Source: a bacterium (lineage in GTDB: Bacteria; UBP18; UBA7526). Taken from it: a stretch of 49,434 nt of DNA. The position numbers and the translations under genes were made by a program. The stretch's first letter is position 1. The number at the start of each line of letters is the position of its first letter. Below the pieces are notes generated by a model that did not search any database, was not told where the DNA came from, and saw only the letters and a list, made by a program, of their open reading frames with translations. Of this stretch, positions 5,894 through 46,584 are shown piece after piece. Location of the stretch: assembly GCA_030615855.1 (NCBI GenBank), contig JAUWYL010000001.1, forward strand, positions 203,008-252,441, written 5' to 3'.

Positions 5894-6171
5894 TTATTGG
5901 GAGTGCATGGATTGAGTTGCATATCCCGGGAGTGAATTCCCTGAAAGGTAAGAGACAGATCATCAAGAGTATAAAGGAGAGAGTAAAGAATAGATTTAAC
6001 GTCTCCATTGCTGAGGTGGAAAAACAGGATCTCTGGCAGAGAGCCACTCTGGGCTTGGCCTGTGTGACAAATAATAAGGCCCAAGCAAATCGCACCCTCT
6101 CTAAAGTAATCCATTTTATAGAGCAGAATAGAAATATCTCCCTTACAGATTATGAGATAGAAATTATCTAA
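5890..6171 (+). CDS. DUF503 (YlxP-like) protein
   Basis: SLKGKRQIIKS...RFNVSIAEV...DLWQRA motif; usual position between infB and rbfA. Confidence 0.9.
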   Translation: MIIGSAWIELHIPGVNSLKGKRQIIKSIKERVKNRFNVSIAEVEKQDLWQRATLGLACVTNNKAQANRTLSKVIHFIEQNRNISLTDYEIEII

Positions 6172-6172
6172 A

Positions 6173-6207
6173 GTGAACCGTGATCCGTGAACAGTGAACG
6201 GTAAAAA
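6173..6207 (+). repeat. GTGAWCN heptamer tract
   Basis: gtgaacc gtgatcc gtgaaca gtgaacg gtaaaaa; same unit at 34459 and 46484. Confidence 0.75.
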
Positions 6208-6218
6208 TGGGGTGAGAA

Positions 6219-6676: not shown

Positions 6677-7653
6677 TGAAGGAACTAAAAAAGATTGTCG
6701 AGGTTATCAGAGAGAATAAAAGTTTCTTTATTACTTCTCACATCAGGCCAGATGGGGATTCCATCGGCTCTCAACTTGCCCTGAAGAGGATACTGGAAAG
6801 GTTAGGAAAGGAAGTAATCATCACCAATCATGATCCGGCCCCTAAAATCTACGATTTTCTTCCCGGAAAAGAGAGCATCAAGCAAGAACTACCTAAGAAT
6901 AGAGAGTTCGATGTGGCCTTTATTCTGGATAGCCCAGAGCTCTCTCGTCTGGTGAGCACCGCAGAGATAATCGAGAAAGCAAAGGTCATCGTAAATATCG
7001 ATCACCATCTGGGGAATGAAAAGTTTGGAAAGTATAACTATGTTGATACTGAGGCTTCTGCCGTGGGAGAAGAGATATATGAACTGACAAGAGTAATGGG
7101 GTTTGAGATAGATAGGGAGATTGCCTTATGCCTCTATGTGGGCATCTTTACAGATACCGGTTCCTTCCGGCAGTCAAATACTACCCCTCGTACCCATGAG
7201 ATCGTGGCCCACCTCATGAAGATAGGAGATTTAAAGCCTGCCCAGATCACCCATCAGATATACGGGACCCAGCTTCCTTCTGCCATAAAGTTATTGAGCA
7301 TGACTTTGGATACCTTGGAGAGGAGCGGAGACGGCAGGATAGCTTGGATGACCATTACCGACGAGATGTTCAAAGAGACCGGAACCACCAAGGCGGAGAC
7401 CGAGAACTTCATCAACTATGTTCGTTCTGTGAAAGGAAGCGAGGTGGCCATTCTATTCACTGAGCTTGCTAAGGATGAGGTAAAGGTCAGTTTCCGCTCC
7501 AAGTCTAGTGCCGACGTTAATAGTATAGCCAAAATATTTGGAGGTGGAGGACATCTTCGCGCTTCTGCCTGCACTATAAAGGGAGATTTGGAGGAGGCAA
7601 AGAGGAAGGTGCTGGTTGAGGTAGAGAAGAGACTAAAGAAGGTTTACGGTTGA
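6676..7653 (+). CDS. nrnA: DHH/DHHA1 bifunctional oligoribonuclease / PAP phosphatase
   Basis: HIRPDGDSIGS, IDHH, TDTGSF, GGGGH motifs; typical rbfA-nrnA-truB context. Confidence 0.93.
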   Translation: MKELKKIVEVIRENKSFFITSHIRPDGDSIGSQLALKRILERLGKEVIITNHDPAPKIYDFLPGKESIKQELPKNREFDVAFILDSPELSRLVSTAEIIEKAKVIVNIDHHLGNEKFGKYNYVDTEASAVGEEIYELTRVMGFEIDREIALCLYVGIFTDTGSFRQSNTTPRTHEIVAHLMKIGDLKPAQITHQIYGTQLPSAIKLLSMTLDTLERSGDGRIAWMTITDEMFKETGTTKAETENFINYVRSVKGSEVAILFTELAKDEVKVSFRSKSSADVNSIAKIFGGGGHLRASACTIKGDLEEAKRKVLVEVEKRLKKVYG

Positions 7654-7780
7654 CCGACCCCGATGCTATTGGGGTGCCCGCGGTTGACGGTAAACAGCCC
7701 CGACAGCTGTCGGGACGGGCAAATCGAATAGTAGCTATTCACCAGCGGGGCAAGTAAAACGCGCCGCTCAACGGTAAACG
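7643..7780. repeat. 138-bp multi-hairpin repeat, family A, copy 2 (supplies nrnA stop)
   Basis: Near-identical to 1915-2052; nrnA last codons and TGA (7651-7653) lie inside it. Confidence 0.92.
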
Positions 7781-8706: not shown

Positions 8707-9636
8707 ATGGAACTTGTTCTGGGAATTGATAAGATAAGGAAAAGGCATAAGAGAGGGATTCTTGCCCTGGGCACATTTGATGGCCTCCATCTCGGTCATC
8801 AGGGGGTGATCGAATCTCTAAAGAGACGAGCGAAAAGACTGAAGAAGAGATCCATTGTTTTGACCTTTGATATCCATCCCCTAAAAACGATTGATCCAGC
8901 AAAGTGCCCTCCCCTGCTTACCCCAAAGGAGGAGAAGATAAATCTAATTCAAGATCTGGGAATAGATACCCTTGTCCTAACTAATTTTGATAGGAAATTT
9001 GCTTCCCTCTCACCAGAGAAATTCATCAGAGATATTCTGGTCAGTAGATTGGGCGTAAGAGAGATATTCGTGGGAAAGGACTTCACCTTTGGAAGAGGAG
9101 CAACTGGCGATATAACGTTCTTGAGAAGTAAAGCAAAAGAGTATGGCTTCAAGGTCAGGGTCATTCCTCCGGTAAAAATAGGCAAGAAGGTAATAAGTAG
9201 CACAGCAATAAGGGAACTTATTAGAAGAGGGGCGGTTAAGAAAGCGGCAAAACTTCTGGGCCGCCCCTATGCCCTCTATGGCCGAGTAATCCATGGGGAA
9301 TCCCGGGGAAAAGAATTGGGCTATCCTACAGCCAATATAAGGCCTCACTATGAGATGATTCCCTCTGATGGAGTCTATCTAGGGAGGATAAAAGTGAGGG
9401 GAAGGGATCGGGATGGGCTTCTAAATATCGGAACCCAGCCTACCTTCCATAAGCGAGGGGCAAGAATTATTGAGACCTATATCTTTAACTTTAATGGAAG
9501 GATCTATGGCCGGGATATAAAGGTCAGTTTTCTGCAGCGGATACGAGATGAAATCGCCTTTAAAAGCCCAGAAGCCCTCAGAGCCCAGATAAGGAAGGAT
9601 ATTATCAAGGCAAGAAAAATTTTGCATCTCATTTGA
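8707..9636 (+). CDS. ribF: Bifunctional riboflavin kinase / FAD synthetase
   Basis: GTFDGLHLGH, ISSTAIR, GYPTAN, NIGTQPTF motifs. Confidence 0.97.
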   Translation: MELVLGIDKIRKRHKRGILALGTFDGLHLGHQGVIESLKRRAKRLKKRSIVLTFDIHPLKTIDPAKCPPLLTPKEEKINLIQDLGIDTLVLTNFDRKFASLSPEKFIRDILVSRLGVREIFVGKDFTFGRGATGDITFLRSKAKEYGFKVRVIPPVKIGKKVISSTAIRELIRRGAVKKAAKLLGRPYALYGRVIHGESRGKELGYPTANIRPHYEMIPSDGVYLGRIKVRGRDRDGLLNIGTQPTFHKRGARIIETYIFNFNGRIYGRDIKVSFLQRIRDEIAFKSPEALRAQIRKDIIKARKILHLI

Positions 9637-9649
9637 TATGTGTTATAAT
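9622..9649 (+). promoter_or_regulatory. Putative sigma70 promoter for rpsO-pnp
   Basis: TTGCAT (9622-9627), 16 bp, TG-t-TATAAT (9641-9649). Confidence 0.6.
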
Positions 9650-9834
9650 AAAGACGCCTTCGCTTCGCGAAGAACTTTGTTATTCCAGCGCGTCTTTATT
9701 AGACAGGGCAAGTAGAACGCGCTGTTATAATAAGGAAGCCTCCGCTTCCAGCGGAGAACCTTGTTATTCGGGCTTCCTTAGTAGAGGAGGCAAGCCTGCT
9801 TGTCGGCAGACAGGCGAAGCGCGTCGTCATAATA
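9641..9834 (+). repeat. Two tandem 82-nt structured units delimited by (T/C)GT(T/C)ATAATA
   Basis: Unit 1 9641-9722; unit 2 9723-9824 is 82 nt once the 20-nt hairpin 9795-9814 is removed; compensatory stem changes between units. Confidence 0.8.
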
Positions 9835-9846
9835 ATTTAAATATAA

Positions 9847-9896
9847 TGCCGTTGCTGGGAGAATCGCCTCCCCACCGATTCTCTCGGCAATTGGCA
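9847..9896 (+). promoter_or_regulatory. Structured rpsO leader, candidate S15 autoregulatory RNA
   Basis: Long hairpin tgcc-gttgc-tgggagaatcg...cgattctctcg-gcaat-tggca just upstream of the rpsO RBS; S15 leaders are known in many phyla. Confidence 0.55.
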
Positions 9897-9921
9897 GCGA
9901 GTAAGAAAGGGGGAAATGAAA

Positions 9922-10191
9922 ATGGTCTTGGAGAAGGAAAAGAAGAAAGAGATTATCTCTAAGTACCGGTTGAATGAGAAGGATACTGGCTCACCAGAGG
10001 TTCAGATCGCCCTGCTAACGGAGAGGATTAATTCCTTGACCGAGCACCTTGAGACCCATAAGAAGGACCATCACTCACGAAGAGGGCTTTTAAAGATGGT
10101 TGGCCAGAGGAGAAGACTGTTGGGTTACCTTAAGGATAAGGATAAGAAAAGATACGAGAAGATTATCCAGGAACTGGGTTTGAGAAAATGA
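9922..10191 (+). CDS. rpsO: 30S ribosomal protein S15
   Basis: [38 protein letters not shown] 9922 preferred over 9916 from SD spacing. Confidence 0.99.
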
Positions 10192-10194
10192 TTG

Positions 10195-10282
10195 GCGCCA
10201 AGTCGCCAAAGAAATCACCAAGTCGCCAAATTTTGGCGCCTTTGCGGATCTTTTGTGTTTTAGCGTTTAGCGTTTTGGCGTT
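10195..10282. repeat. Degenerate CGCCAA/TTGGCG palindromic element (period about 8)
   Basis: cgccaagt cgccaaag ... caccaagt cgccaaat then tttggcg, tttgcg, tttagcg, tttagcg, ttttggcg. Confidence 0.7.
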
Positions 10283-10297
10283 ACGAAAGGAGAAGAG

Positions 10298-13727: not shown

Positions 13728-15800
13728 ATGGCCATAAAAGAGAAGAGAATCAGTGAGATAGAAGGGATTATTCTATTTGCTTTGACTATTTTTATTCTCC
13801 TTAGCCTTATCTCCTATGAGCCAACGGATATCGCTTATTATCAGCAGCCACCTAATATCCCGGCAGTGAACTGGATGGGGAAGGCCGGTGCTTATCTGGC
13901 CTTTGGACTGAACTTCGTCATGGGTTATGGCGCCTATCTCATTCTTCTGGTGACTCTTGTCTGGGGAATAAGAAGATTTCGGGGGATGAAGTTCCATAAG
14001 AAGGCCTATCGGGTCTTAGGAGTCTTACTCCTCTTAGTCTCAACCTGCACACTACTTTCCTCAAAATACTCTTTAATCTTAGAAAAAAGATTGGCATTGG
14101 GAGGACATCTGGGAATCGTTCTCTCCAATGGACTGAAGCAGATCTTTGGGGCTTCGGGTGCCTATCTCATTGCAGTAACGGTATTAGTCGTCTCTTTACC
14201 TCTGGCGGCAGAGGTCTCTTATCCCAAGTTCTTTTCTCTGTTGGGAAGAGGAATCCTCTCCTTCTTTCGGGGATTAATAAGGATATTTTCCCGGAAACCG
14301 AGACCAGCCAAGCCGATAGCAATTAAGAGGCCAGAGATTAAAGAGGAGAAGGTTGCTCCTACCCCTAAGAGAGTGAAGAAGGTAACCAAGAAGATTCCGG
14401 AGGAGGAGAAGGCCTATACTATGCCTGATCTCTCTCTTCTCTCTAAGCCAAAGGCAGAGGAGGCGAAAGAGGACCTTAAGGCAAAGGGTGCTCTCTTGGA
14501 AGAGACTCTCTCTGAGTTTGGGATATCGGCCAAGGTTATTGGCGCTCTTCAGGGTCCAGTCATTACCAGGTTTGAGGTCCAGCCGGCAAAAGGGGTAACT
14601 GTCTCTTCTATTACCTCTCGCTCTAATGACATCGCTCTGAAATTGGCTGCCCCCAGTATCCGTATCGAGGCCCCCATTCCGGGAAAGGCCGCCTTGGGGA
14701 TTGAGGTTCCCAACAAGAGGCCTTCCTTTGTCTATCTCTCAGAGATTCTGAGTACCAGGGAGTTCTATGAGTCTCCATCAAAACTTACCCTGGCATTGGG
14801 AAAGGACATAGCCGGTAGACCAGTAATCGCTAATCTGGCTACCATGCCCCATTTATTGATTGCCGGAACCACAGGAAGCGGCAAGAGTGTCTGTATAAAC
14901 TGCATCATAAATAGCATCCTGTTTCAGGCAGCACCAGATGAGGTGAAGTTCCTCTTAATCGATCCCAAGAGAGTGGAACTGAAGGCCTATAATGATAGCC
15001 CCTATCTTCTCACCCCGGTAATTACTGACCCCAAGAAGGCAACTTTTGCTCTGAAGTGGGCGGTGGGGACAGTAGAAGAGAGGTTCAAGTTATTCTCTGA
15101 GGCCGGGGCCCGGGATATCGAAAACTATAATGCCCTCACCAAGGTAGAGAAAATACCCTACATCATCGTGATCATTGACGAGTTAGCCGATCTGATGCTC
15201 GTGGCTCCTGTAGACTGTGAGCATACCATCACCCGACTGGCCCAGATGGCTCGGGCAGTGGGGATTCACATTGTCCTTGCTACCCAGAGACCATCTGTTG
15301 ACGTCATTACTGGTCTCATTAAGGCCAACTTCCCGGTGAGGATCGCCTTCCAGGTTGCGGCAAGGGTTGATTCTAGGATTGTCTTAGATATGAGTGGGGC
15401 AGAGAAGTTACTGGGAAGAGGGGATATGCTCTTCTCCGACCCTTCAAAGGCCAAACCAATACGTATCCAAGGATCGCTCATTACCGACCCTGAGATTGAG
15501 AGGATGGCAGAGTTTACCCGTTCTCAGGCAGAGCCGCTCTATGTGGAGGACATTTTTGAAAGGAGAGCCCCTTCCTTACCCAGCACCCCAGAGGAGGACG
15601 AATTATATCAGGATGCGGTGAGGGTGGTCATCCAGGCAAGAAGGGCCTCAGTCTCCATGCTACAGAGGAGATTAAAAGTAGGCTATGCCCGGGCAGCAAG
15701 ACTGGTCGATATGATGGAGGAGGAAGGGATAGTGGGACCTTATAGGGGAAGCAAGGTGAGGGAAGTACTGGCTGATGAAAGCTACCTCAAAAAAGAGTAA
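13728..15800 (+). CDS. ftsK: DNA translocase FtsK/SpoIIIE
   Basis: N-terminal TM domain, IAGTTGSGKS, IDELADLM, LATQRPSVDV, gamma domain LQRRLKVGYARAARL. Confidence 0.97.
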   Translation: MAIKEKRISEIEGIILFALTIFILLSLISYEPTDIAYYQQPPNIPAVNWMGKAGAYLAFGLNFVMGYGAYLILLVTLVWGIRRFRGMKFHKKAYRVLGVLLLLVSTCTLLSSKYSLILEKRLALGGHLGIVLSNGLKQIFGASGAYLIAVTVLVVSLPLAAEVSYPKFFSLLGRGILSFFRGLIRIFSRKPRPAKPIAIKRPEIKEEKVAPTPKRVKKVTKKIPEEEKAYTMPDLSLLSKPKAEEAKEDLKAKGALLEETLSEFGISAKVIGALQGPVITRFEVQPAKGVTVSSITSRSNDIALKLAAPSIRIEAPIPGKAALGIEVPNKRPSFVYLSEILSTREFYESPSKLTLALGKDIAGRPVIANLATMPHLLIAGTTGSGKSVCINCIINSILFQAAPDEVKFLLIDPKRVELKAYNDSPYLLTPVITDPKKATFALKWAVGTVEERFKLFSEAGARDIENYNALTKVEKIPYIIVIIDELADLMLVAPVDCEHTITRLAQMARAVGIHIVLATQRPSVDVITGLIKANFPVRIAFQVAARVDSRIVLDMSGAEKLLGRGDMLFSDPSKAKPIRIQGSLITDPEIERMAEFTRSQAEPLYVEDIFERRAPSLPSTPEEDELYQDAVRVVIQARRASVSMLQRRLKVGYARAARLVDMMEEEGIVGPYRGSKVREVLADESYLKKE

Positions 15801-16157
15801 CCAGTAACCAGTTAACAGTAAAAAGTAGGAAAGTAGGAAAGTAAAAGAGTATCAGATTACCAGTATATCAGATGGAGAAGGACAGATATCAGAATTCTAA
15901 AATCCTAAGCACGAAATCTCTCCGAGCCAGAGGCTCTCTGAGCCGGAGGCCGAAATACTAAACAAGCACAAATGTTCAAAATTCAAATGACCAAAACAAG
16001 AAACAAAGAATTGTCAGTTTAGAAATTTGAAATTAGGATTTAGATATTGTTTAGGATTTCGATATTAGAATTTCGAATTTACCAAATCTGATATTCTGAC
16101 CTTCTGAATACTCATTCTGATGTTCTGATAATCTATAGTTTTACTGGGACTGTAAAC
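15797..16157. repeat. Family B palindromic element (GTAACCA outer, ATCAGAAT inner arms) with a nested family C element
   Basis: Arms homologous to 44491-44696; central 15891-16081 homologous to 23808-24000. Confidence 0.85.
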
Positions 16158-18375: not shown

Positions 18376-18831
18376 ATGAAGTGGCTGATTAAGTTTCTGG
18401 CAACGGGATTCTATACTGGTTATACCCCCATTGCTCCAGGAACCGCAGGAAGCCTCATTGGGGTTATCATCTATCTCGGGATGTATAGGCTTTCTTGGCC
18501 TCTTTATCTTTTAATTCTTATCGTTCTTTCTCTTTTTGGAATATGTATTTCAAATAAAGCGACCATCTACTTCTTCAAAGAGAAGGATAGCAAGAGGATT
18601 GTCATTGATGAGATCATTGGCTTCCTGATCGCCATGTTCTTAATTCCCTTCAAGCTTAAATTCATCCTTGTGGCTTTCATTGTCTTTCGGGTGATTGATA
18701 TCTTGAAGCCCTTCCCCTTAAGAAGGTTGGAGAAGCTACCTGGTGGTTGGGGAGTGATGTGTGATGACCTCTTAGCCGGGGTCTATGCTAATCTAATCGT
18801 GCAAGCAATTAGATTAGCGAGTTTACAGTAA
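18376..18831 (+). CDS. pgpA: Phosphatidylglycerophosphatase A
   Basis: APGTAGS, IVIDEIIG, FRVIDILKPFP, GVMCDDLLAG. Confidence 0.95.
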   Translation: MKWLIKFLATGFYTGYTPIAPGTAGSLIGVIIYLGMYRLSWPLYLLILIVLSLFGICISNKATIYFFKEKDSKRIVIDEIIGFLIAMFLIPFKLKFILVAFIVFRVIDILKPFPLRRLEKLPGGWGVMCDDLLAGVYANLIVQAIRLASLQ

Positions 18832-19016
18832 CCAGCGAACAGTAACCAGAAAAACCACAGAATATCAGTATATCAGAACATCAGAATGAGAATTCAGAAT
18901 ACCAGATTTAATTTTATAATCTGACTTTCTGATAACTGACCTTCTCTATCTGGTAATCTGGTTATCTGATGCTCTTTTATTTTTTGCTGTTAACTGTAAA
19001 CTGGTTACTGGTTACT
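18821..19016. repeat. Family B palindromic element, inverted relative to 44491-44696
   Basis: Roughly 90% identical by eye to the reverse complement of 44491-44696; supplies the pgpA stop. Confidence 0.9.
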
Positions 19017-33333: not shown

Positions 33334-34476
33334 ATGAAAGTTGCTTTAGTTCGTCAGAGTTATCATAAATACGGAGGGGCGGAGAGGTATGTAAGTTACC
33401 TGGCAGAGGGGTTCTTGAAAAGAGGCCATAAGGTCCACGTCTTTGCCAGAAAGTGGGATCCCAGTGCCCCAAAAGGGATTATCTTCCATAGGGTTCCTAC
33501 CCTAAAAGGCCCCTCTTTTTTAAAAGCTTTGAGTTTTGCCTCCAATGTGAAAAGATTATTGGAAGGGAAGAAATTTGATATCATTAATAGTTTTGATCGC
33601 ACTCTCTATCAGGATGTTTACCGTGCTGGAGATGGGGTTCATAGAGAGTGGAGGAAGAGACTTTTAGAGATTACTCCTAATCTCCTAATCAGACTCTTGA
33701 TCCTTATCAACCCTTTACATCTAAGCCTCCTTTTCTTAGAAAAAAGAATCTTTCAAGAGAATAATTATAAGAAGATAATTGCCATATCAAAGAAGGGTAA
33801 AGAGGAGATTATAAAGTATTACGGAGTCTGTCCAGAGGATATTATTGTCATCTATAATGGGGTGAATCTGGAGGAGTTTCATCCCAAAAATAAGGCCTTA
33901 TTCAGAGAGGAGATAAGAAAAGAATTTGGTATTTCTGAAGAGGAATTTCTCGTTTTGTTTGTGGGAAGTGGCTATAGGAGGAAGGGGTTGAGATACTTGA
34001 TTGAGGCCGTTTCTCTCCTAAAGGACGAAAAACCATTAAAAGTATTAGTAGTGGCAAAGGGCAAGAAAAGAGCGTACTTAAGATTAGCAAAAAAGCTGGG
34101 AATAAGAAGTAAAATAATCTTTGCTGGGGGAAGAAAAGACTTAAGAAAGTTCTATGCAGCAAGTGATCTTTTCGTTCTTCCCACTATCTATGAACCATTT
34201 GGCAATGTCTGTCTGGAGACCCTGGCCAGTGGGCTTCCCATTATTGTGAGTAAAGCGAGCGGAGCAGCAGAGATTATTACAGAAGGAGAGAACGGGCTCC
34301 TCCTAAAGAATCCCAGAGATCCCCAAGAACTAGCTAAAAAGATTAAACAAACTTTTGATAATAATTTTAGAGAAGAATTAAGTAAAAACGCCCGGATTTT
34401 AGCTGAGAATTTTACCGTGGATAAGAATGTAGAAAGGACATTAAAAGTCTACCAGGAAGTGATCGGTGAACAGTAA
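33334..34476 (+). CDS. Glycosyltransferase family 4 (WaaG/WabG-like)
   Basis: GGAERY, YRAGDGVH, GSGYRRKG, PTIYEPFGNVCLETLASG; start at ATG 33334. Confidence 0.9.
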   Translation: MKVALVRQSYHKYGGAERYVSYLAEGFLKRGHKVHVFARKWDPSAPKGIIFHRVPTLKGPSFLKALSFASNVKRLLEGKKFDIINSFDRTLYQDVYRAGDGVHREWRKRLLEITPNLLIRLLILINPLHLSLLFLEKRIFQENNYKKIIAISKKGKEEIIKYYGVCPEDIIVIYNGVNLEEFHPKNKALFREEIRKEFGISEEEFLVLFVGSGYRRKGLRYLIEAVSLLKDEKPLKVLVVAKGKKRAYLRLAKKLGIRSKIIFAGGRKDLRKFYAASDLFVLPTIYEPFGNVCLETLASGLPIIVSKASGAAEIITEGENGLLLKNPRDPQELAKKIKQTFDNNFREELSKNARILAENFTVDKNVERTLKVYQEVIGEQ

Positions 34477-34612
34477 TCGGTGAACGGTGATCGGTGAACG
34501 GTGATCGGTGAATAGAATAGCTATCAAGCAATTAAGCCATTAAGAATAAGGATCAAGCATTCAGTATCTGTGATCTGTGTTAATCTGTAATAAATCTGTG
34601 CGAATCTGTGTC
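34459..34612 (+). repeat. Composite repeat: 8 GTGAWCN heptamers, ATYAAGCA octamers, AATCTGTG units
   Basis: gtgatcg gtgaaca gtaatcg gtgaacg gtgatcg gtgaacg gtgatcg gtgaata (34459-34514), then atcaagca attaagcc attaagaa and atctgtg repeats. Confidence 0.85.
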
Positions 34613-35751: not shown

Positions 35752-36945
35752 ATGGAGAAGTTGGCTCTTTTGGGAGGAAAACCAGCAAGAGATAAGTTTT
35801 TGGTCTTTGGGGCACCAGATATAAGGGAAGCAGAGATAAAAGAGGTAGTTGCTACTTTAAAATCCGGCTGGCTCTCTACTGGCCCCAGGGTGGCAAGATT
35901 CGAAGAAGATTTCAAAAGTTATATCGGATGTAAACACGCCATCGCCCTAAACTCCTGTACTGCAGGATTACACCTTGCTTTGGAGATCGCTGGAATTGAG
36001 ACGGGAGATGAAGTAATTACTACTCCTCTAACCTTTACCTCAACAGCCAATGTCATTATTCATAAAGGCGCTACTCCTATCTTTGCTGATGTAGAAAGGG
36101 AAACGGGAAACATTGATCCTAAGGAAATAAAGAGAAAGATTACCAAGAAGACCAAGGCTATTATCCCCGTTCATTTATATGGGAGACCATGCAGGATGGA
36201 TGAAATTATGAAAATTGCAAAAGAAAATAGTCTCTTTGTCATTGAAGATGCTGCCCATGCCGTGGAGGTTTACTATAGAAATAAGAAGATTGGAAATATC
36301 GGAGATCTCACGGCTTTCAGTTTCTACGCTACAAAGAACGTGGTTACTGGCGAAGGAGGAATGATCACTACCAATAATGATGAATGGGCAAGAAGATTAA
36401 GAGTCTTAAGGCTCCATGGTCTCTCAAAGGATGCCTGGAAGAGATACTCTGCCGAAGGCTTTACTCCTTATGACATCCTTTATCCCGGCTATAAATATAA
36501 TATGATGGATATTCAGGCAGCCTTAGGTATTTATCAATTGAAAAGAGTGGAAAAGAATCTGAAGATTAGGGAGAAATATTTCAGAATGTATAATCAGGCT
36601 TTCACAGAGATTCCAGAGATAGAAACTCCGAGCGAGGAAGAGCATATCCGTCACGCCCGCCATCTCTATACTATTCTATTAAGATTGGAAAGATTAAATT
36701 GTGGTCGAAATCAATTTGCGGTCGCGCTACAAGCAGAGAACATTGGTATTGGCATTCACTTCTTGGCCTTGCATCTTTCTTCCTATTATAAGAAGAGATT
36801 CGGGTTCAAAAGGGGAGACTTCCCCAATGCAGAATATATCTCAGATAGAACGATATCCTTACCCCTTTCTACCAAGTTGACTGAAGAGGATATTAATGAT
36901 GTTATAGAAGCAGTGAGGAAAGTGATCAGGTATTACAAAAGATGA
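35752..36945 (+). CDS. DegT/DnrJ/EryC1/StrS PLP-dependent sugar aminotransferase
   Basis: NSCTAGLHLAL, PVHLYG, IEDAAHA, FSFYATKNVVTGEGG, GYKYNM; ORF-track start 35734 also possible. Confidence 0.94.
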   Translation: MEKLALLGGKPARDKFLVFGAPDIREAEIKEVVATLKSGWLSTGPRVARFEEDFKSYIGCKHAIALNSCTAGLHLALEIAGIETGDEVITTPLTFTSTANVIIHKGATPIFADVERETGNIDPKEIKRKITKKTKAIIPVHLYGRPCRMDEIMKIAKENSLFVIEDAAHAVEVYYRNKKIGNIGDLTAFSFYATKNVVTGEGGMITTNNDEWARRLRVLRLHGLSKDAWKRYSAEGFTPYDILYPGYKYNMMDIQAALGIYQLKRVEKNLKIREKYFRMYNQAFTEIPEIETPSEEEHIRHARHLYTILLRLERLNCGRNQFAVALQAENIGIGIHFLALHLSSYYKKRFGFKRGDFPNAEYISDRTISLPLSTKLTEEDINDVIEAVRKVIRYYKR

Positions 36946-38039
36946 GGATATTGTTAGCTACAAACGACTTTCCACCGAAGGTGGGGGGAATTCAAACCTA
37001 TTGCTATGAGTTGGCGAAGAACCTTACTTCTTTAGGGGAGGAAATAGTTGTTTTAGCGCCTGGGACAGAAGGGGACTTAGAATTTGATAAAAGGCAGAAC
37101 TTTAAGATAATAAGAATCAAAAATAAAATAAGTCTATATTTTACTTTTTTCTTCATTCTTAAAAGAGAAAAGATAGAAAGGATCCTGGTTGGCCATCGGG
37201 CAAACTATGCCCGCTTGGCTTTCTGGACTAATCTTCTTTTTAATACCCCCTATGATATCGTTGTTTATGGGGGAGAGATCTTTCTTCCTGAAAGCAGAAA
37301 AAGTATTCAAAAAAATTTTAAAAGGGCTCATAAAGTAATTGCCTTTAGCCATTTTACTAAGAAAAAATTAGCTGAGATTGGTGTTTCAGAAAATAAGATT
37401 GTGGTCGTTTATCCTGGGGTGGATGCTATAAGATTTAATCCGGCGATAGACCCCTCTCCCATTAGAAGGAAATACCGATTAGAAGGCAAGAAGGTTATTC
37501 TGACCGCTGCTCGTTTGGTCAGGCACAAGGGTCACCAGAATGTTCTCAAGGCACTCCCTCAGGTTCTGAAGGAGGTGCCCAACCTTGTTTATCTCATTAT
37601 TGGCAAAGGAGAAGAGAAAGGGGTACTAAAGGAAATGGTAAAGGATTTAAAATTGGAAGAAATAGTGGTCTTTGCGGGAGAGATAGTGGAGGAACTTCCC
37701 TTATATTATGCTGCCTGTAACCTTTTCATTATGCCCAGTTACCAGATCAAAGATAGAGGTGATGTGGAAGGTTTTGGCATTGTCTATTTGGAGGCCAACG
37801 CCTGTGGAAGACCAGTTATCGGGGGAAGGAGCGGAGGAGTTACTGATGCTGTCATCGATGAAGAAACCGGCCTCTTGGTAGACCCTTTGAACATCGATCA
37901 GATTGCCGAGGCCTTAGTTAAATTGCTCACTAATCCAGAACTTGCCCGAAGACTTGGAGAAAAAGGAAGAGAACGAGTGGAGAGAGAATTTAGTTGGGGA
38001 AGAATAGCCCAGAAGATTAGAGAAATAATTAGAAGTTAA
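36942..38039 (+). CDS. Glycosyltransferase family 4 (PimB-like), paralog A1
   Basis: TNDFPPKVGGIQTY, RHKG, VEGFGIVYLEANACG. Confidence 0.92.
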   Translation: MRILLATNDFPPKVGGIQTYCYELAKNLTSLGEEIVVLAPGTEGDLEFDKRQNFKIIRIKNKISLYFTFFFILKREKIERILVGHRANYARLAFWTNLLFNTPYDIVVYGGEIFLPESRKSIQKNFKRAHKVIAFSHFTKKKLAEIGVSENKIVVVYPGVDAIRFNPAIDPSPIRRKYRLEGKKVILTAARLVRHKGHQNVLKALPQVLKEVPNLVYLIIGKGEEKGVLKEMVKDLKLEEIVVFAGEIVEELPLYYAACNLFIMPSYQIKDRGDVEGFGIVYLEANACGRPVIGGRSGGVTDAVIDEETGLLVDPLNIDQIAEALVKLLTNPELARRLGEKGRERVEREFSWGRIAQKIREIIRS

Positions 38040-38048
38040 GGAAGGCAG

Positions 38049-39167
38049 ATGAGTAGATATAATTTTAGCGAAGAGTTAAAGAATTTAAAAATTGGGATTA
38101 TTCGCCGTAGTCCACCGGATTCTACTGGTGAGACCTTTTCTTCTGAACTTTTTTTTCACCTGAAAGATAGATTAGATGTTGAGCAGGTAATATGTGGCTG
38201 GGATAGGCGATGTCGGGAGATTGATCGAAAGAGGCCAGCGAGCATAGTAATAACTTACCGTAATAAACGCCTGAGAGATAGACAACTGCTTTCCCAAATG
38301 CCCCACTATGACCTTTACCATTTCCACTTTCCAGTCTTCGCTTCCCTAATTAAATATAGAAGGCCGGCCATTGTTACGGTGCACGATCTCATTCCCCTTC
38401 GCTTTCCTCATCTCTATTCTCGTACCCGACGGAAATTAACTAAAAAGAGACTTATCTATTCCAGTAGGGCCGATTGCATCATTGCTGTTTCTCAGTCTAC
38501 TAAGGAGGACTTAGTCCAATTGTTGAATATTAATCCAGAAAAGATCACTGTTATTTATCATGGGGTCAATCATAAAATATACCAGCCGAGAGCCAAAGAC
38601 CAGGCAAGAAAGGCCTTGGGTTTATCCCAAGAGAAAAGAATTCTTCTAAATATGGGTACAGAAAGTTTGAATAAGAATATAGAAAGATTAATTCGGGCAT
38701 TTTATCGTTTAACGAAGAGATTTACAGATCTAATACTTATTCGGGTAGGGTCAACTTCAGAATCGGTGACTCACTTGATAAATGAACTAAAGATAGGCGA
38801 TAAGGTATTAAGGAAAGGATTTATAGAAAGACACTTTAATCTCTATTATAACGCAGCCGATCTATACATCTGTCCTGAGATATTGGGAGGATTCGGCCTA
38901 CCCAACTTAGAGGCCATGGCCAGTGGTTGTCCGGTAATTTCCTCAGATGCCGGGTCTTTCCCGGAAGTAGCAAGAGATGCGGGACTATTCTTTAATCCCT
39001 GGGATGAAGAGGATATCTTTGAAAAGACCGCCCTCCTGTTAGAGAATAGTAAGTTGCGGGGAGAATACGCACAAAAAGGCCTGAAGCGAGCAAAACTATT
39101 CAGTTGGAAGAAAGCGGCTGAGGAAACTATAAAGGTCTATGCCCAAGTAGTCAGAGAATATTATTAA
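38049..39167 (+). CDS. Glycosyltransferase family 4, paralog B1
   Basis: TVHDLIP, AVSQSTKEDL, KNIERL, GFGLPNLEAMASG. Confidence 0.9.
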   Translation: MSRYNFSEELKNLKIGIIRRSPPDSTGETFSSELFFHLKDRLDVEQVICGWDRRCREIDRKRPASIVITYRNKRLRDRQLLSQMPHYDLYHFHFPVFASLIKYRRPAIVTVHDLIPLRFPHLYSRTRRKLTKKRLIYSSRADCIIAVSQSTKEDLVQLLNINPEKITVIYHGVNHKIYQPRAKDQARKALGLSQEKRILLNMGTESLNKNIERLIRAFYRLTKRFTDLILIRVGSTSESVTHLINELKIGDKVLRKGFIERHFNLYYNAADLYICPEILGGFGLPNLEAMASGCPVISSDAGSFPEVARDAGLFFNPWDEEDIFEKTALLLENSKLRGEYAQKGLKRAKLFSWKKAAEETIKVYAQVVREYY

Positions 39168-39168
39168 G

Positions 39169-40254
39169 ATGAAAATTCTCTTAGCGACCAATGGCTTTTT
39201 ACCTGAGATAGGAGGAGTTCAAACCTACTGTTATCAATTAGCAAAGAACCTTTTTTCTTTGGGGGAAGAAATCATTGTCTTAGCTCCGAAAACCGAAGGG
39301 GATGCGGATTTTAATAAGAAGGAGAGGTTTAAGATAATCAGGACTAAGAAGAAGGTTTGTTCCCGGTTGGCTTTCCTTTTTCTATTAAAAAGAGAAAGAA
39401 TAGGAAAAATATTGGTGGGTCATGGCTCACATTATGTTCGTTTAGCTTCTTTAGCAAACCGTCTTTTTAAAATTCCCTATGATATTATCATTCATTTGGA
39501 AGAGATTCTTCCTTTAGAAAGAAAAAAGATTATTCAGAAAAGTTTCAAAAGAGCCGACAAAATCATCACAGTCAGCCACTTCGCAAAAAAGAAATTGGTG
39601 GAGATTGGCATTCCAGAGAGTAAGATTGTAGTCATCCATCCCGGAGTAGATCCAGAAAAATTTCGTCCTAAACCCGAACCTTCCCCAATTAGAAAGCGAT
39701 ATCGCTTAGAAAAGAAAAAGGTTATTTTAACTATCTCCCGCTTAGGCGAACATAAAGGTCATGCTAATGTTATTCGTGCCCTCCCTCAGGTATTAGAAAA
39801 AATACCTGAAAGCGTCTATTTGGTGGTGGGTTCAGGCGAGAAGGAAGATAGATTAAAAGGACTGGTGAAGGAATTAGGGCTGGAAGATAAGGTGATCTTC
39901 ACTGGTGAAGTGGAAGAAGAGGAGCTTCCTCTATATTACGCTGCCTGTGATGTTTTCATTATGCCCAGTGATGTGGAGGGATTTGGCATCGTTTTTTTAG
40001 AAGCGGGAGCCTCGGGCAAACCCGTCATTGGAGGAAAGACCGGAGGAATTTCTGATGCTATCACCGATGGAGAGACTGGTTTACTGGTAGATCCGTTAAG
40101 CGTTAACCAAATTACTGAAGCACTAATAAAATTGCTCACCAATCCTGAATCTGCCCGAAAACTGGGAGAAAAAGGGAGAGAAAAAGTGGAAAAGGAATTT
40201 AACTGGCAGGAGATAGCAGAAAAGGTTAAAGGAATAATCCATGAGAAAGGCTAG
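39169..40254 (+). CDS. Glycosyltransferase family 4 (PimB-like), paralog A2
   Basis: GGVQTYCYQLAKNL, EHKGH, VEGFGIVFLEAGASG; collinear with 36942-38039. Confidence 0.92.
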   Translation: MKILLATNGFLPEIGGVQTYCYQLAKNLFSLGEEIIVLAPKTEGDADFNKKERFKIIRTKKKVCSRLAFLFLLKRERIGKILVGHGSHYVRLASLANRLFKIPYDIIIHLEEILPLERKKIIQKSFKRADKIITVSHFAKKKLVEIGIPESKIVVIHPGVDPEKFRPKPEPSPIRKRYRLEKKKVILTISRLGEHKGHANVIRALPQVLEKIPESVYLVVGSGEKEDRLKGLVKELGLEDKVIFTGEVEEEELPLYYAACDVFIMPSDVEGFGIVFLEAGASGKPVIGGKTGGISDAITDGETGLLVDPLSVNQITEALIKLLTNPESARKLGEKGREKVEKEFNWQEIAEKVKGIIHEKG

Positions 40255-41188
40255 TATTATCATCTCCAACTGGAATGGCAAGAATCTACTGAAGGAGAAT
40301 CTGCCCAGTGTGATCAAGGCTATCAAGTATAGCGGCGGGAATCATGAGTTAATTGTGGTTGACGATGCCAGTTCAGATGGGAGTCCAGAGTTTATAAAGA
40401 AGAATTATCCTCAAGTAAAGCTAATTGAGCTGGAGGAGAATAAAGGATTTGGGAAAGCGAACAATATTGCTATCTCAAAAAGCAAAAACGACGTCATCGT
40501 TCTTTTGAATACCGATATGTCTATCAAGAAGGATTACTTCTCTTTTGTCCTTTCCCATTTTGACGATGAAAATATCTTCGCTGTTACCCCTAAGATGATT
40601 ACGGAAGATATCTTCCGTAAGAAATTTAAAGTCACTATCTCCTGCTGGGCAAAGTTTAGGCATGGCTTCTGGCACTTTATAGAGATTCGTGACTTGAGAG
40701 ACGAAGAAGGTCACCGTATTGTCCTTACTGTGCCCGGAGGAGGAGTAGCCTTTGACAAGAAAAAATTTCTTTCTCTAGGCGGTTTTGACAGTCTCTATTA
40801 TCCCTTTTACTATGAGGATACTGACCTCTCTTATCGTGCCTGGAAGAGGGGCTGGAAGATTATTTATGAACCAACTACGCTAGTATACCATAGATGCAGC
40901 ATGACCATTGGTGAACACTTTGGGGAGTATGCTTCTCTCATTGAGATGAAGAACTACTATCTTTTCATGTGGAAGAATATTACAGATAGCCACCTGATCC
41001 TGAAGCATCTCTTAATTCTTCCCTTTCACCTTCTAATTAAATTATTGGGAGGTAGATGGATCTGGGTCAAGGGCTTCTTTTTGGCCTTGAAGCAGCTGAG
41101 AGAAGTATTAGCCCGGAGAAAGGTAGTAAAAAAAGAGAGCATCCTTTCAGATCGTAAGGTCTTAGACCTCTTTAAGAAGAGGAGATAA
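40241..41188 (+). CDS. Glycosyltransferase family 2
   Basis: IIISNWNG, VDDASSDGS, NKGFGKANN, LLNTD, YYEDTDL. Confidence 0.92.
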   Translation: MRKASIIISNWNGKNLLKENLPSVIKAIKYSGGNHELIVVDDASSDGSPEFIKKNYPQVKLIELEENKGFGKANNIAISKSKNDVIVLLNTDMSIKKDYFSFVLSHFDDENIFAVTPKMITEDIFRKKFKVTISCWAKFRHGFWHFIEIRDLRDEEGHRIVLTVPGGGVAFDKKKFLSLGGFDSLYYPFYYEDTDLSYRAWKRGWKIIYEPTTLVYHRCSMTIGEHFGEYASLIEMKNYYLFMWKNITDSHLILKHLLILPFHLLIKLLGGRWIWVKGFFLALKQLREVLARRKVVKKESILSDRKVLDLFKKRR

Positions 41189-41189
41189 G

Positions 41190-42320
41190 ATGAGATTAAA
41201 CAATTTGACAATTGGGATCATCAGGGATGGTCCTCCGGGCTGTTCGGGAGGAGTTATTTCTCGAGAGTTATTTCTAAACTTAAAAGATAATCTAAACATA
41301 GAAGAAGTGATGTGTATTCGGCTCAGGGAGAGCCGCAAGATCAGATGGAATACTCCTCCTACGAGAATAATAACCTATCGTACCAAACATTTGAGAGACT
41401 CTCAGCTATTATGGAAGTTGCCTCGTTATGACCTCTATCATTTTCAAAGCCATATCTTCTTCAGCCTCATTAAACATAGAAGGCCAGCCATAGCTACGGC
41501 GATTGACCTCATTCCTTTAAAGAGCGGTCTCTATTCTGACACCCATCTTGAGGCAGTAAGGAGGTCTTTTCAATTCTTTAGGGAGGCAGAGCACATCATT
41601 GCTATATCTCAGAGTACCAAAAAAGACCTGATTGAACTACTGAATATCGATTCAGAGAAAATAGAGGTTATCTACCTCGGAGTAAATTATAAGATATATA
41701 AGGCGAGGAATAAGGAAGAAGTGAGGAGAAAATTGAACCTGCCTTTAGATAAAGAAATCCTGCTCAATGTAGGCACCGAAAACGAGAATAAGAATATAGA
41801 GAGATTAATCAGAGTATTTTATCGTTTACAGAAAAGATTCAAAGACCTCATGCTTATCAGGGTAGGTTTGATCTCAGATTCCATAACTAAGTTAGTAGAC
41901 GAGTTAAAACTAAATGATAGGGTACTGAGAGTAGGATTTATAGAAGGCTACCCTAATCTCTATTATAATGCGGTAGATGTTTATGTCTGCGCTGATTTAT
42001 TGGGAGGTTTTGGATTACCTAATCTGGAGGCTATGGCCAGTGGTTGTCCAGTAGCTACCTCAGGGAGCAGTGCCTTTCCTGAGGTGGTAGGGAATGCTGG
42101 ATTACTTTTCAATCCTCAGGATGAAGATGATGTCTTTGAGAAAATAGCTACTCTGTTAGAGGATAGTAGGTTACGGGAAAAATATGCTCAAAAAGGTCTT
42201 GAGAGAGCAAAATTATTTAGTTGGAAGAAAATGGCTCAGAAGACTATAAAGGTTTATGCCAGAGTGGCCAGAGAATACTATGGGAAGAATATCATCATTC
42301 CAAAAGATGAAAAAGAATGA
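41190..42320 (+). CDS. Glycosyltransferase family 4, paralog B2
   Basis: Collinear with 38049-39167; GFGLPNLEAMASG. Confidence 0.9.
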   Translation: MRLNNLTIGIIRDGPPGCSGGVISRELFLNLKDNLNIEEVMCIRLRESRKIRWNTPPTRIITYRTKHLRDSQLLWKLPRYDLYHFQSHIFFSLIKHRRPAIATAIDLIPLKSGLYSDTHLEAVRRSFQFFREAEHIIAISQSTKKDLIELLNIDSEKIEVIYLGVNYKIYKARNKEEVRRKLNLPLDKEILLNVGTENENKNIERLIRVFYRLQKRFKDLMLIRVGLISDSITKLVDELKLNDRVLRVGFIEGYPNLYYNAVDVYVCADLLGGFGLPNLEAMASGCPVATSGSSAFPEVVGNAGLLFNPQDEDDVFEKIATLLEDSRLREKYAQKGLERAKLFSWKKMAQKTIKVYARVAREYYGKNIIIPKDEKE

Positions 42321-44223: not shown

Positions 44224-44486
44224 TGGCGGAGACTATTGGGAGTTTAGTGGATAAAATAAGCATCTTTGAACAGAAGTGCTTCCATATGAAGGAAGAGACA
44301 AAGAGAAAGGATGTTTCTAAAAAGCATGTCGGAGAATGTAAAAAGAAACTTTTGATATTAAAGAGGCAGCGCAACGACTTAGTAGAAGAACTTGATGAAC
44401 TATTCATGGATATTCTATCTGGAAAGAAAAAGCTAAAGGTCTATAAGCAATTCAAGATGTATAATCTACCAGAGTATATAAAATAA
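44223..44486 (+). CDS. DUF4254-like protein, C-terminal half
   Basis: ETIGSLVDKISI..K.FHM..E...C..KL..L..Q..DL...G.K..KVYKQFKMYN; TAATG coupling. Confidence 0.72.
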   Translation: MAETIGSLVDKISIFEQKCFHMKEETKRKDVSKKHVGECKKKLLILKRQRNDLVEELDELFMDILSGKKKLKVYKQFKMYNLPEYIK

Positions 44487-44490
44487 AGAA

Positions 44491-44696
44491 GTTTACAGTA
44501 ACCAGTTTACAGTTTACAGCAAAAAAGTAAAAGAGCATCAGATAATCAGATTATCAGATGGAAAAGGTCAGTTATCAGAAGGTCAGATTGAAAACATTGA
44601 ATCTGGTATTCTGAATTCTCATTCTGAGATTCTGATGTTCTGATATACTGATATTCTATGGTTTTGCTGGTTACTGTTCGCTGGTTACTGGTTACT
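44491..44696. repeat. Family B palindromic element
   Basis: Inverted near-copy of 18821-19016 with one extra octamer. Confidence 0.9.
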
Positions 44697-46475: not shown

Positions 46476-46483
46476 CTCTTACA

Positions 46484-46584
46484 GTGAACAGTGATCGGTG
46501 AACAGTGAACGGTTTATCTGTGGTCATCAGCGTTTCCTAAGCCCACGCAGTGAGCAATACAAAGAAATCCGCGTCTAAGGAGAG
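46484..46584 (+). repeat. GTGAWCN heptamers plus ATCYGYG units ending GTCTAAGGAGAG
   Basis: gtgaaca gtgatcg gtgaaca gtgaacg; 3' end aatccgcgtctaaggagag parallels aatctgtgtctaaggagag at about 34603-34621. Confidence 0.7.

Follow-up and report, generated by a model that had tools for sequence, protein, structure and literature searches.

Two tandem 82-nt hairpin units behind the −10 box of rpsO, probably a small insertion element that restores its own target in an uncultured bacterial family

The stretch analysed here, hereafter the window, is a 49,434-nucleotide (nt) piece of a bacterial genome of the GTDB lineage UBP18; UBA7526 (GenBank assembly GCA_030615855.1, contig JAUWYL010000001.1, positions 203,008 to 252,441 of the forward strand). 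Its plus strand carries, in this order, a DHH/DHHA1 gene, truB, ribF, rpsO and pnp, as judged from Pfam matches and open reading frames (ORFs), and two folded repeat units lie head to tail between ribF and rpsO, the gene for ribosomal protein S15. The ribF gene ends at 9636 and a promoter-like site overlaps its 3′ end, consisting of TTTGCA, a 17-nt spacer and TATAAT (9644–9649) with TG in front, which matches 10 of 12 consensus positions in a promoter scan. Behind the array follow 8 nt, a further TATAAT, a long hairpin, a ribosome-binding site and rpsO itself (from 9916). The window belongs to genome G000 (1.375 Mb, 45 contigs), which was compared with five relatives, G001 to G005. These six genomes make up the family total for one uncultured bacterial family; they are metagenome-assembled genomes (MAGs), 53–94% complete, with sizes of ~0.8–1.4 Mb, and the adjacency of ribF and rpsO is kept in the relatives. 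The features at the locus, all on the plus strand, are given below.

9621..9626, plus strand: −35-like hexamer TTTGCA of the native rpsO promoter, within the 3′ end of ribF (promoter scan)
9641..9649, plus strand: extended −10 box TGtTATAAT, native promoter and insertion target, with the array starting at the next base (relatives’ boxes, promoter scan)
9650..9731, plus strand: unit 1, subfamily A1, 82 nt (alignment, DNA fold, covariance model 100.9 bits)
9646–9657 with 9690–9701, plus strand: outer stem of unit 1, whose 5′ arm takes in TAAT of the target
9658–9672, plus strand: inner hairpin of unit 1
From 9672, plus strand: conserved single-stranded GAACTTTGTTATTC of unit 1
9702–9709 with 9719–9726, plus strand: 3′ hairpin of unit 1, with the conserved G·G mismatch
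9727–9731, plus strand: terminal ATAAT of unit 1, whose end reads TGTTATAAT, a perfect extended −10
9732..9833, plus strand: unit 2, 102 nt, that is 82 nt plus a nested 20-nt palindrome (alignment, covariance model 84.1 bits)
9728–9740 with 9771–9783, plus strand: outer stem of unit 2, A3-type
9740–9756, plus strand: inner hairpin of unit 2, loop GAACCTTGTTATTC
9784–9791 and 9821–9828, plus strand: arms of the 3′ hairpin of unit 2, one pair broken relative to the G005 orthologue
9795..9814, plus strand: nested 20-nt palindromic repeat in the loop of that 3′ hairpin, boundary ambiguous by 1 nt
9828–9833, plus strand: terminal CATAAT of unit 2
9842..9847, plus strand: second TATAAT hexamer, 8 nt past the array (sequence inspection)
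9847..9896, plus strand: long conserved hairpin of the rpsO 5′ leader, past the array and outside the repeat (comparison and folding)
9916..10191, plus strand: rpsO, ribosomal protein S15, the gene whose promoter bears the array (Pfam Ribosomal_S15, E 2.9e-39)

The observation of two tandem units behind the rpsO −10 box, made in an earlier note on the letters of the window, is confirmed. Its three junctions lie at 9641, 9723 and 9825, deletion of 9795–9814 from unit 2 leaves both units at 82 nt, and Tandem Repeats Finder returns an 82-nt period with 1.9 copies and 78% matches (score 192 at 9641–9794). The compensatory changes reported there are real: pairwise alignment shows A-T to G-C and C-G to A-T in the outer stem and T-A to C-G in the inner hairpin, and the loop GAACYTTGTTATTC and the tail GGCAAG...CGCG are conserved between the units. 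The delimitation itself has to be moved, as the empty sites of relatives fit units at 9650–9731 and 9732–9833, and the first TGTTATAAT (9641–9649), which had served as a delimiter, is the native promoter and lies outside any unit. A third helix, the 3′ hairpin (9702–9726 in unit 1), had been missed. The likeness of the TGTTAT junction to the loop is present here but is peculiar to the rpsO locus: the left TGTTAT is native promoter, the right one is a C-to-T variant of the usual unit end GTCATAAT, and the likeness is therefore partly a coincidence.

Unit 1 is of subfamily A1, whereas unit 2 combines an A3-type outer stem with an A2-type 3′-hairpin arm. An origin of unit 2 as a deletion chimera of two units was considered and set aside, because the G005 orthologue shows that a single substitution in the 3′-hairpin arm suffices. 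Contigs from four DNA runs break within the repeat and no listed contig spans the array; they are uninformative on unit number and variants. The 20 nt that set the two lengths apart do form a hairpin, as noted earlier, and prove to be a separate palindromic repeat, absent from 34 of the 36 aligned units and found at the same loop position in one G001 unit. Near-palindromes of this type (CCTGCCTGTCGGCAGACAGG) give 25 matches on both strands at about 20 sites in G000 (≤4 mismatches), including C30:157441, C30:161708, C43:21742 and C6:23239, and are often nested in other repeats.

The units recur throughout the family. BLAST joins unit to unit with an E-value of 4e-10 and finds copies on other contigs with values as strong as 3e-24. 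A covariance model was built from 36 distinct units (alignment A2), with at least 65 bits defining a full unit; together with BLAST it gives 11 full units at 7 loci on 6 contigs of G000, and alone it gives 12, 7, 19, 4 and 1 full units in the other five genomes, the genome with 19 being rated 53% complete and the one with a single unit being G003. The total is 54 full units in 6/6 family genomes, and the next-best score is 53.6 bits. At E up to 1e-4 the same model matched none of 95 genomes belonging to other families. One genome from each of 185,579 species was also scanned with an exact pattern, which matched only four unclassified ‘bacterium’ MAGs. The pattern used for metagenomes was loose, so that nearly all of the at least 119 matching stretches are chance; four true units occur among the matches listed (L132, L178, L194 and L232), and the 27 stretches matched in viral contigs contain none. 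Rfam 15 yields no match at the gathering score in the window or at 10 loci, and none over the units even at E up to 10. Limited keyword searching of the literature found no description of such an element, which does not establish that none is in print. The units fall into three subfamilies, A1, A2 and A3, set apart by changes that are matched between the two arms of the outer stem and likewise of the 3′ hairpin; hybrids occur, and arrays range from 1 to at least 4 units.

The claim that the element is structured is borne out, and extends to three helices with compensatory changes. These were tested on alignment A2 as the outer stem (columns 3–14/61–72), the inner hairpin (15–21/37–43) and the 3′ hairpin (73–80/111–118). 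Together they are paired in 92.3% of 907 cells, with 13 of 26 pairs changed on both sides; none of 500 column shuffles was as good, and sliding the partners by 1–3 columns left 35–53% paired. The inner hairpin (91.0% paired) and the 3′ hairpin (96.4%) each have five pairs changed on both sides. RNAalifold predicted the outer stem and the 3′ hairpin from the alignment alone, and with DNA parameters the minimum-energy fold of the top strand is the tested structure (z −4.3 for unit 1 and −4.0 for unit 2, reached by 0 of 200 shuffles). A purine-purine mismatch in the 3′ hairpin is kept, as G·G in 31 of the 36 units, and the unpaired loop is nearly invariant across all of them. There is also a competing helix, of ATAATAARG with the loop segment CYTTGTTAT, which is 95.7% paired, includes one perfectly covarying pair (AU 19, GC 17) and is the minimum-energy fold under RNA parameters. 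One 5′ base covaries with its partners in both this helix and the tested structure.

Empty sites in relatives are available at four loci, namely rpsO, ThiD2, C7 and C37. At rpsO, G000 has two units and G005, from another genus, has two units plus a short related module. By contrast, five of the seven rpsO loci in the six genomes have the box TGaTATAAT (TGaTATACT in G004) with no unit behind it; in four of these the leader follows the box directly, and in the fifth (G001:C68) a different repeat begins ~4 nt after it. Presence and absence of the rpsO units are found among species of one genus whose S15 is 97% identical. The ThiD2 locus has a shared promoter (TTGAAC, 17 nt, TGGTATGAT or TGGTATAAT) followed by one unit in G000 and two in G002, whereas G004 passes from promoter to ribosome-binding site without any insert and G005 has other small repeats there. 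The orthologous ThiD2 unit has diverged like its flanks (92.0% against 93.5% identity) and has lost pairs and one loop base. At the C7 locus, where the TATAAT overlaps the stop codon of the upstream gene, G003 reads TTATAAT and then directly the 40+ nt found behind the G000 unit. At C37, G002 reads CTTTAAT and then directly the flank, and at that same point G000 has an A3 unit and G001 an A2 unit. The mreB-mreC spacer contains three units in G000 and one in G002, in an array antisense to both genes.

Two of these loci have further features. The ThiD2 leader of G001 (L082:2006-2176) resembles a thiamine pyrophosphate (TPP) riboswitch (47.8 bits, E 1.8e-8, below the gathering score of 54.3) and is stretched to 171 nt by CCCCGAT...ATCGGGG hairpins of the same type as the inner hairpin of some units; no TPP-like leader is seen at the ThiD2 gene of G000, G002, G004 or G005. 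On contig C44 of G000, a two-unit array runs over the final codons of an upstream LysM ORF, and this frame now stops within a unit. Downstream of the array is a gene for a ComEA-like protein (L003:42-1448) that contains a LysM domain and five HHH_3 repeats.

The flanks define the target. In the 36 aligned units the hexamer to the left is TATAAT in 16, CATAAT in 11 (mostly internal junctions), GATAAT and AATAAT in two each and a singleton in five; at the 3′ end, 33 units have CATAAT and three have TATAAT. The pattern that collected the units required an end of the form xAT[AT]AT; the 11 G000 units were found without that requirement, and all 11 end in CATAAT or TATAAT. The seven G000 arrays have the left flanks TATAAT (three times), TATGAT, GATAAT, TTTAAT and GGAAAT, and two further true units, on metagenome contigs, stand behind TGGTAAAAT and TGCTAGAAT. 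Repeated insertion at TATAAT-like boxes, as proposed earlier, is supported, with empty sites at four loci and with TATAAT, CATAAT or another xATAAT (four units) in front of most copies.

The filled C37 site reads TTTAAT to the left of the unit and CATAAT at its right end, which share at most AAT; the terminal ATAAT therefore belongs to the element, and any duplication is of at most 3 nt. At sites that read ATAAT, such as C7, a 5-nt duplication is indistinguishable from none. Insertion restores a −10-like hexamer and with it a new target, and tandem arrays therefore form. The target is the sequence, not promoter function as such, as seen from the stop-codon site and the antisense mreB-mreC array, which together also dispose of the idea that all arrays are promoter-bound and co-oriented with a downstream gene. 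By crude ORF calls, G000 has 878 TATAAT hexamers inside ORFs and 122 between them, of which 12 are preceded by TG at a distance of two bases; type-A arrays are found at 3 of the 122, including 2 of the 12 with TG, small numbers that nonetheless hint at a leaning towards genuine promoters.

We consider it probable that the units are a lineage-specific, non-autonomous hairpin element of ~82 nt that integrates 3′ of −10-like hexamers and regenerates them. The part of this reading in which we have high confidence is that they are an insertion element with a (T)ATAAT-like target, whereas the single-strand, HUH-like mechanism is put forward tentatively. Integration occurs immediately 3′ of a (T)ATAAT-like hexamer, at rpsO the promoter −10 box, and the last six bases of the element, CATAAT, restore a −10-like hexamer before the old downstream sequence and supply a fresh target, so that units accumulate head to tail. 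The element would move as a folded single strand in which the outer stem pairs the left junction with the interior, with a hairpin close to the 5′ end and a second, imperfect one directly against the 3′ ATAAT. This would follow the ‘peel-and-paste’ logic of palindrome-associated transposable elements (PATE) and of insertion sequences (IS) of the IS200/IS605 type, with a mobilising enzyme acting in trans. As noted earlier, both the loop and the outer stem’s 3′ arm match the target in complementary fashion, over ATAAT+AA, and it is possible that they act as a fixed guide for a fixed target. At rpsO, the 5′ leader of transcripts begun at the native promoter would be ~180 nt longer, and the TGTTATAAT at the end of unit 1 may serve as a second promoter.

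Downstream of the array, the second TATAAT (9842–9847) may be an alternative −10; the position reads TACAAT or GAAGTG in relatives. The leader hairpin at 9847–9896 is found in 6/6 genomes (minimum free energy −29.6 kcal/mol, z −2.6) and may be the S15 autoregulatory site. Other repeat insertions lie between this hairpin and the ribosome-binding site in relatives.

Several observations weigh against the insertion-element reading or parts of it. Domain searches, counted as family genomes with a match out of six and with positive controls for every domain but Y2_Tnp, found no enzyme common to the family: in these incomplete MAGs there were no matches to Y1_Tnp (PF01797; controls 6/14), to the IS110-type Transposase_20 (PF02371; controls 6/14; PF01548 was not searched for), to RVT_1 or to DDE_Tnp_1 (PF01609), and none over the cut-off to the TnpB zinc ribbon (PF07282), which gave one sub-threshold hit in G004. 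The rve domain (PF00665) is present in two of six, G003 and G004 but not G000, and Resolvase in one, G000. The Y2_Tnp (IS91) search is uninformative, having no match in the controls. Wobble cells in the three helices, 18 G·T against 11 A·C, do not pick a strand. In IS608 the 3′ hairpin lies 10 nt from the cleavage site (PMC3201880), whereas in the units it abuts the equivalent position. Among TAnAAT left flanks, TG stands two bases upstream at ~5 of ~15 independent loci (by eye), against a baseline of 12 in 122 intergenic TATAAT, which hints at a preference for genuine promoters over the hexamer alone. Finally, rpsO unit 1 is identical at 87 of 88 positions between G000 and G005, with rpsO 84.9% identical, which is compatible also with selection on the unit, and at the DUF4015 locus an orthologous unit is 95.7% identical and the gene 83.9%. 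The rpsO arrays of G000 and G005 are moreover alike in an unusual layout and carry the same base at the left flank. Any of three histories could account for this likeness: descent in which precise losses recurred, lateral exchange, or selection acting on the array.

One alternative is a functional RNA cassette, in which the units are cis-acting 5′-leader modules or small RNAs (for example a 5′-terminal mRNA-stabilising hairpin, or a protein-binding loop GAACYUUGUUAUUC) that selection keeps at promoters and recombination spreads. It is consistent with the 98.9% identity of unit 1 between genera, with the near-invariant loop, with the alternative helix that is best under RNA parameters, and with the placing of three of seven G000 arrays behind good promoters (TTTGCA-17-TGtTATAAT from the promoter scan and, by eye, TTGAAC-17-TGGTATGAT and TGGTATAAT), from which a start ~7 nt past the −10 would set the inner hairpin at the RNA 5′ end. 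We nevertheless find it unlikely. Units come and go at rpsO among species with nearly the same S15, their number and subfamily vary at orthologous sites, one array is antisense within mreB-mreC and another sits on a stop codon, and the ThiD2 unit decays at the pace of its flanks. In addition, the 5′ arm of the outer stem of first units covaries although it would sit upstream of the transcription start, and the related short cores have no strand bias, 15 being opposed and 13 co-oriented of 33 classified by crude ORF calls. The lack of an Rfam match also counts against it. The ‘undescribed ncRNA motif’ (non-coding RNA) offered in the earlier note is the weaker reading of the units’ primary nature, given their presence or absence at housekeeping genes of close relatives, the antisense array and an orthologous copy whose divergence is close to that of its flanks. 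An alternative we hold to be somewhat less likely still has a host tyrosine recombinase acting site-specifically on a folded hairpin or small circle, as happens with integron attC or Xer-exploiting elements, with ATAAT as the crossover core and no dedicated transposase. An ATAAT core does stand on both sides after insertion, arrays grow at the regenerated site, the outer stem of the folded strand rebuilds a duplex copy of the left junction, and the transposase searches were negative in genomes of which G000 has one gene with a Phage_integrase domain. That gene (C30:194555) is the sole tyrosine recombinase of G000, however, lies ~17 kb from the window array, adjoins no array and is most simply the chromosome-dimer resolvase; the targets share only ~6 nt with no conserved binding arms beside them, and the sides of a circle junction are not inverted repeats (by eye).

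An ordinary double-strand, cut-and-paste miniature inverted-repeat transposable element (MITE) that duplicates a 5-bp ATAAT target would account for the ATAAT on both sides of most units and for the single ATAAT in the empty C7 site. It is improbable, given that no terminal inverted repeats are seen (the termini match at best at ~9/14, by eye), that the two sides of C37 share only AAT, that left flanks vary and right ends are constant, and that no DDE transposase is common to the family. We give little credence to a programmable guide element whose loop specifies the target, as the earlier note had suggested by analogy with bridge RNAs or exon-binding sites (EBS). The complementarity of the loop TTGTTAT and the stem arm TTAKTA to ATAAT+AA speaks for it, but the flanks TATGAT, TTTAAT, GGAAAT, GATTAT, TGCGAT, TAAAAT and TAGAAT all go with an unchanged loop TTGTTAT and an uncompensated 3′ arm. 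The loop–target covariation expected of such a guide is thus missing from every deviating left flank examined; the three subfamilies use the same target, and neither Transposase_20, on which bridge-RNA logic would depend, nor RVT_1 was found in the six genomes. Least credible of all is a purely local tandem duplication or assembly artefact. No single public contig spans the whole array, yet the two units belong to different subfamilies, the ribF-rpsO adjacency is conserved, and copies on six G000 contigs and in five other genomes refute it as a sole explanation.

G000 is rich in other small repeats. Short cores that share the first half of the unit occur at 48 sites outside the window (for example C25:11437-11516, C43:22170 and C14:25180), with the layout AATAAGRACC, a variable hairpin and GAACCTTGTT, at least three other tail types, and tandem runs. 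Many stand right behind stop codons and resemble two-way terminators; in line with the orientation counts above, the cores have no strand bias. One core, C35:74409, is without the hairpin, which suggests that the hairpin is an insertion between GAACC repeats. Eleven solo 3′-hairpin modules (TAGACGAGGCAAG... type) include C3:12474, C30:92455, C35:5922, C35:100656, C35:124042 and C9:10738; several are 7–9 nt downstream of a TATAAT or GATAAT box, about where transcription is expected to start. A 138-nt repeat lies twice in the window, at 1915–2052 and 7643–7780 (DHH gene to truB), in copies 94% identical; its final ~100 nt are present in at least 16 copies genome-wide, and it contains a hairpin that has the design of the units’ 3′ hairpin, with a stem AGCGG, a G·G mismatch and a loop beginning AAG. 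A strongly folded 90-nt repeat (minimum free energy −46 kcal/mol) has four G000 copies that are 95–100% identical (C37:3291-3380, C14:10561, C35:103284 and C30:190083) and many in G001–G004, with identity of up to 99% in another genus. It starts with AAG directly after an xxAAT or xxGAT flank and is missing from the orthologous site in genera g2 and g3; the copy beside one unit has no Rfam match.

Elsewhere in the window and genome, short intergenic ‘word’ repeats recur (GTGAAC/GTGATC, CAGTAAC and ATCAGA types, CGCCAAGT), at 10192–10297 (the rpsO-pnp spacer), 6169–6213, 15791–15894, 18820–18907, 34462–34520, 44485–44580 and 46480–46524. Positions 36939–38929 and 39166–42046 share three collinear direct repeats of 188–300 nt at 72–73% identity, which resemble a tandem gene duplication that has diverged. 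Some 19 kb ahead of the window (C30:183960-184406), a 548-amino-acid ORF of G000 has the Resolvase domain of a large serine recombinase, and there may be an integrated element near it.

A bolder proposal, which we regard as speculative and unlikely, is that one mechanism outside the known transposase families moves a whole toolkit of nested hairpin modules in these streamlined genomes: the type-A units, the ~48 short cores, the solo 3′ hairpins, the 20-nt palindrome and the 90-nt and ~100-nt repeats. It could be an exploited host enzyme or an undescribed small nuclease. Such a nuclease would read a folded single strand that pairs with the −10 hexamer through segments of its own interior. The element would thereby be drawn to promoters, possibly to the non-template strand melted in open complexes, and would repair the promoter that it had split.

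If the insertion-element reading is true, the units are a mobile element that has the −10 hexamer of promoters as its target and mends the promoter it breaks into, and a natural route by which the 5′ leaders of core genes (rpsO, the ThiD2 gene, the ComEA-like gene) may be rewired in very small genomes. That no transposase was recognised in the six genomes, that the empty sites are exact and that copies are nearly identical between genera would together make the family a good place to seek a new enzyme or the hijack of a host enzyme. In practical terms, the repeats break assemblies of this lineage and risk being confused with riboswitch-like leaders.

Several known systems have parts of this behaviour. 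The Correia or NEMIS repeats of Neisseria are small, non-coding mobile repeats near genes, with −10-like hexamers at their ends, and alter or create promoters. The units are likewise small, non-coding and near genes, and end in a −10-like hexamer. Correia elements, however, have long terminal inverted repeats and a TA duplication, and the units have neither. Integron attC sites and the Xer-exploiting CTX phage use folded single-strand sites in which structure rather than sequence is conserved, and insert serially at a regenerated, promoter-adjacent site. The conserved fold of the units and their serial insertion at a regenerated site beside a promoter recall this, but the units come without cassette genes, their target is not a 28-bp site of the attI or dif kind, and no integron integrase with attI was found next to an array, the one Phage_integrase gene of G000 adjoining none (the attC core consensus was not searched for). 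In the bridge RNA of the IS110 family an internal loop is complementary to the target, and there are donor and target double loops. The units have such a complementary internal loop but, at 82 nt, no donor and target double loops and no covariation of guide and target.

REP/REPIN (repetitive extragenic palindromic) sequences are high-copy extragenic imperfect palindromes with compensatory stem variation, a conserved mismatch and a short 5′ motif. The units resemble them in their compensatory stem variation, their conserved mismatch, the TAGA before the 3′ hairpin and four stem types. They differ from REP/REPIN with the REP-associated tyrosine transposase (RAYT, or TnpA-REP; PMC8266576) in being composite, with three helices, in not forming inverted doublets and in having a precise target. 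No RAYT-like Y1 gene was found in any of the six genomes, and a cursory look at a list of 28 3′-hairpin modules showed no gene bracketed by inverted 3′-hairpin modules.

The closest comparison is with PATE and the IS200/IS605 family. The operational definition of PATE (PMC3119063) is the lack of terminal inverted repeats, palindromes near both termini, no target duplication, and a length too short for a transposase. In the units, the 5′ end matches the reverse complement of the 3′ end at ~9/14 at best (by eye), the inner hairpin begins 9–10 nt inside the 5′ end, the 3′ hairpin lies directly against the terminal ATAAT, the two sides of C37 share at most AAT, and the length is 82–102 nt; by that definition the units count as PATE. 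The feature that links PATE to IS200/IS605 is lacking, however: within the limits of MAG completeness, no relation to a resident IS200/IS605-type transposon was found (PF01797 0/6, PF07282 0/6 over the cut-off). IS608 inserts 3′ of a short oligonucleotide that is kept intact, without gain or loss in the empty site, and the family reads its cleavage sites through guide bases 5′ of each hairpin foot, with top-strand specificity (PMC3201880). The units likewise follow a preserved oligonucleotide at four loci; the bases 5′ of their inner hairpin (RANGCC) are not obviously complementary to ATAAT, but other internal segments are. They depart from both groups in that no resident IS with matching ends and no Y1 or TnpB was found in the six genomes, in a 12-bp outer stem that pairs the left junction, target bases included, with the interior, and in last five bases that are themselves the target, a −10 consensus, so that arrays form. 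What they share with them (PMC3119063, PMC3201880) is a fixed orientation to an asymmetric target, nested tiny repeats and a short retained target. On this analogy the units, though not proven members of the PATE family, appear to be working like PATE.

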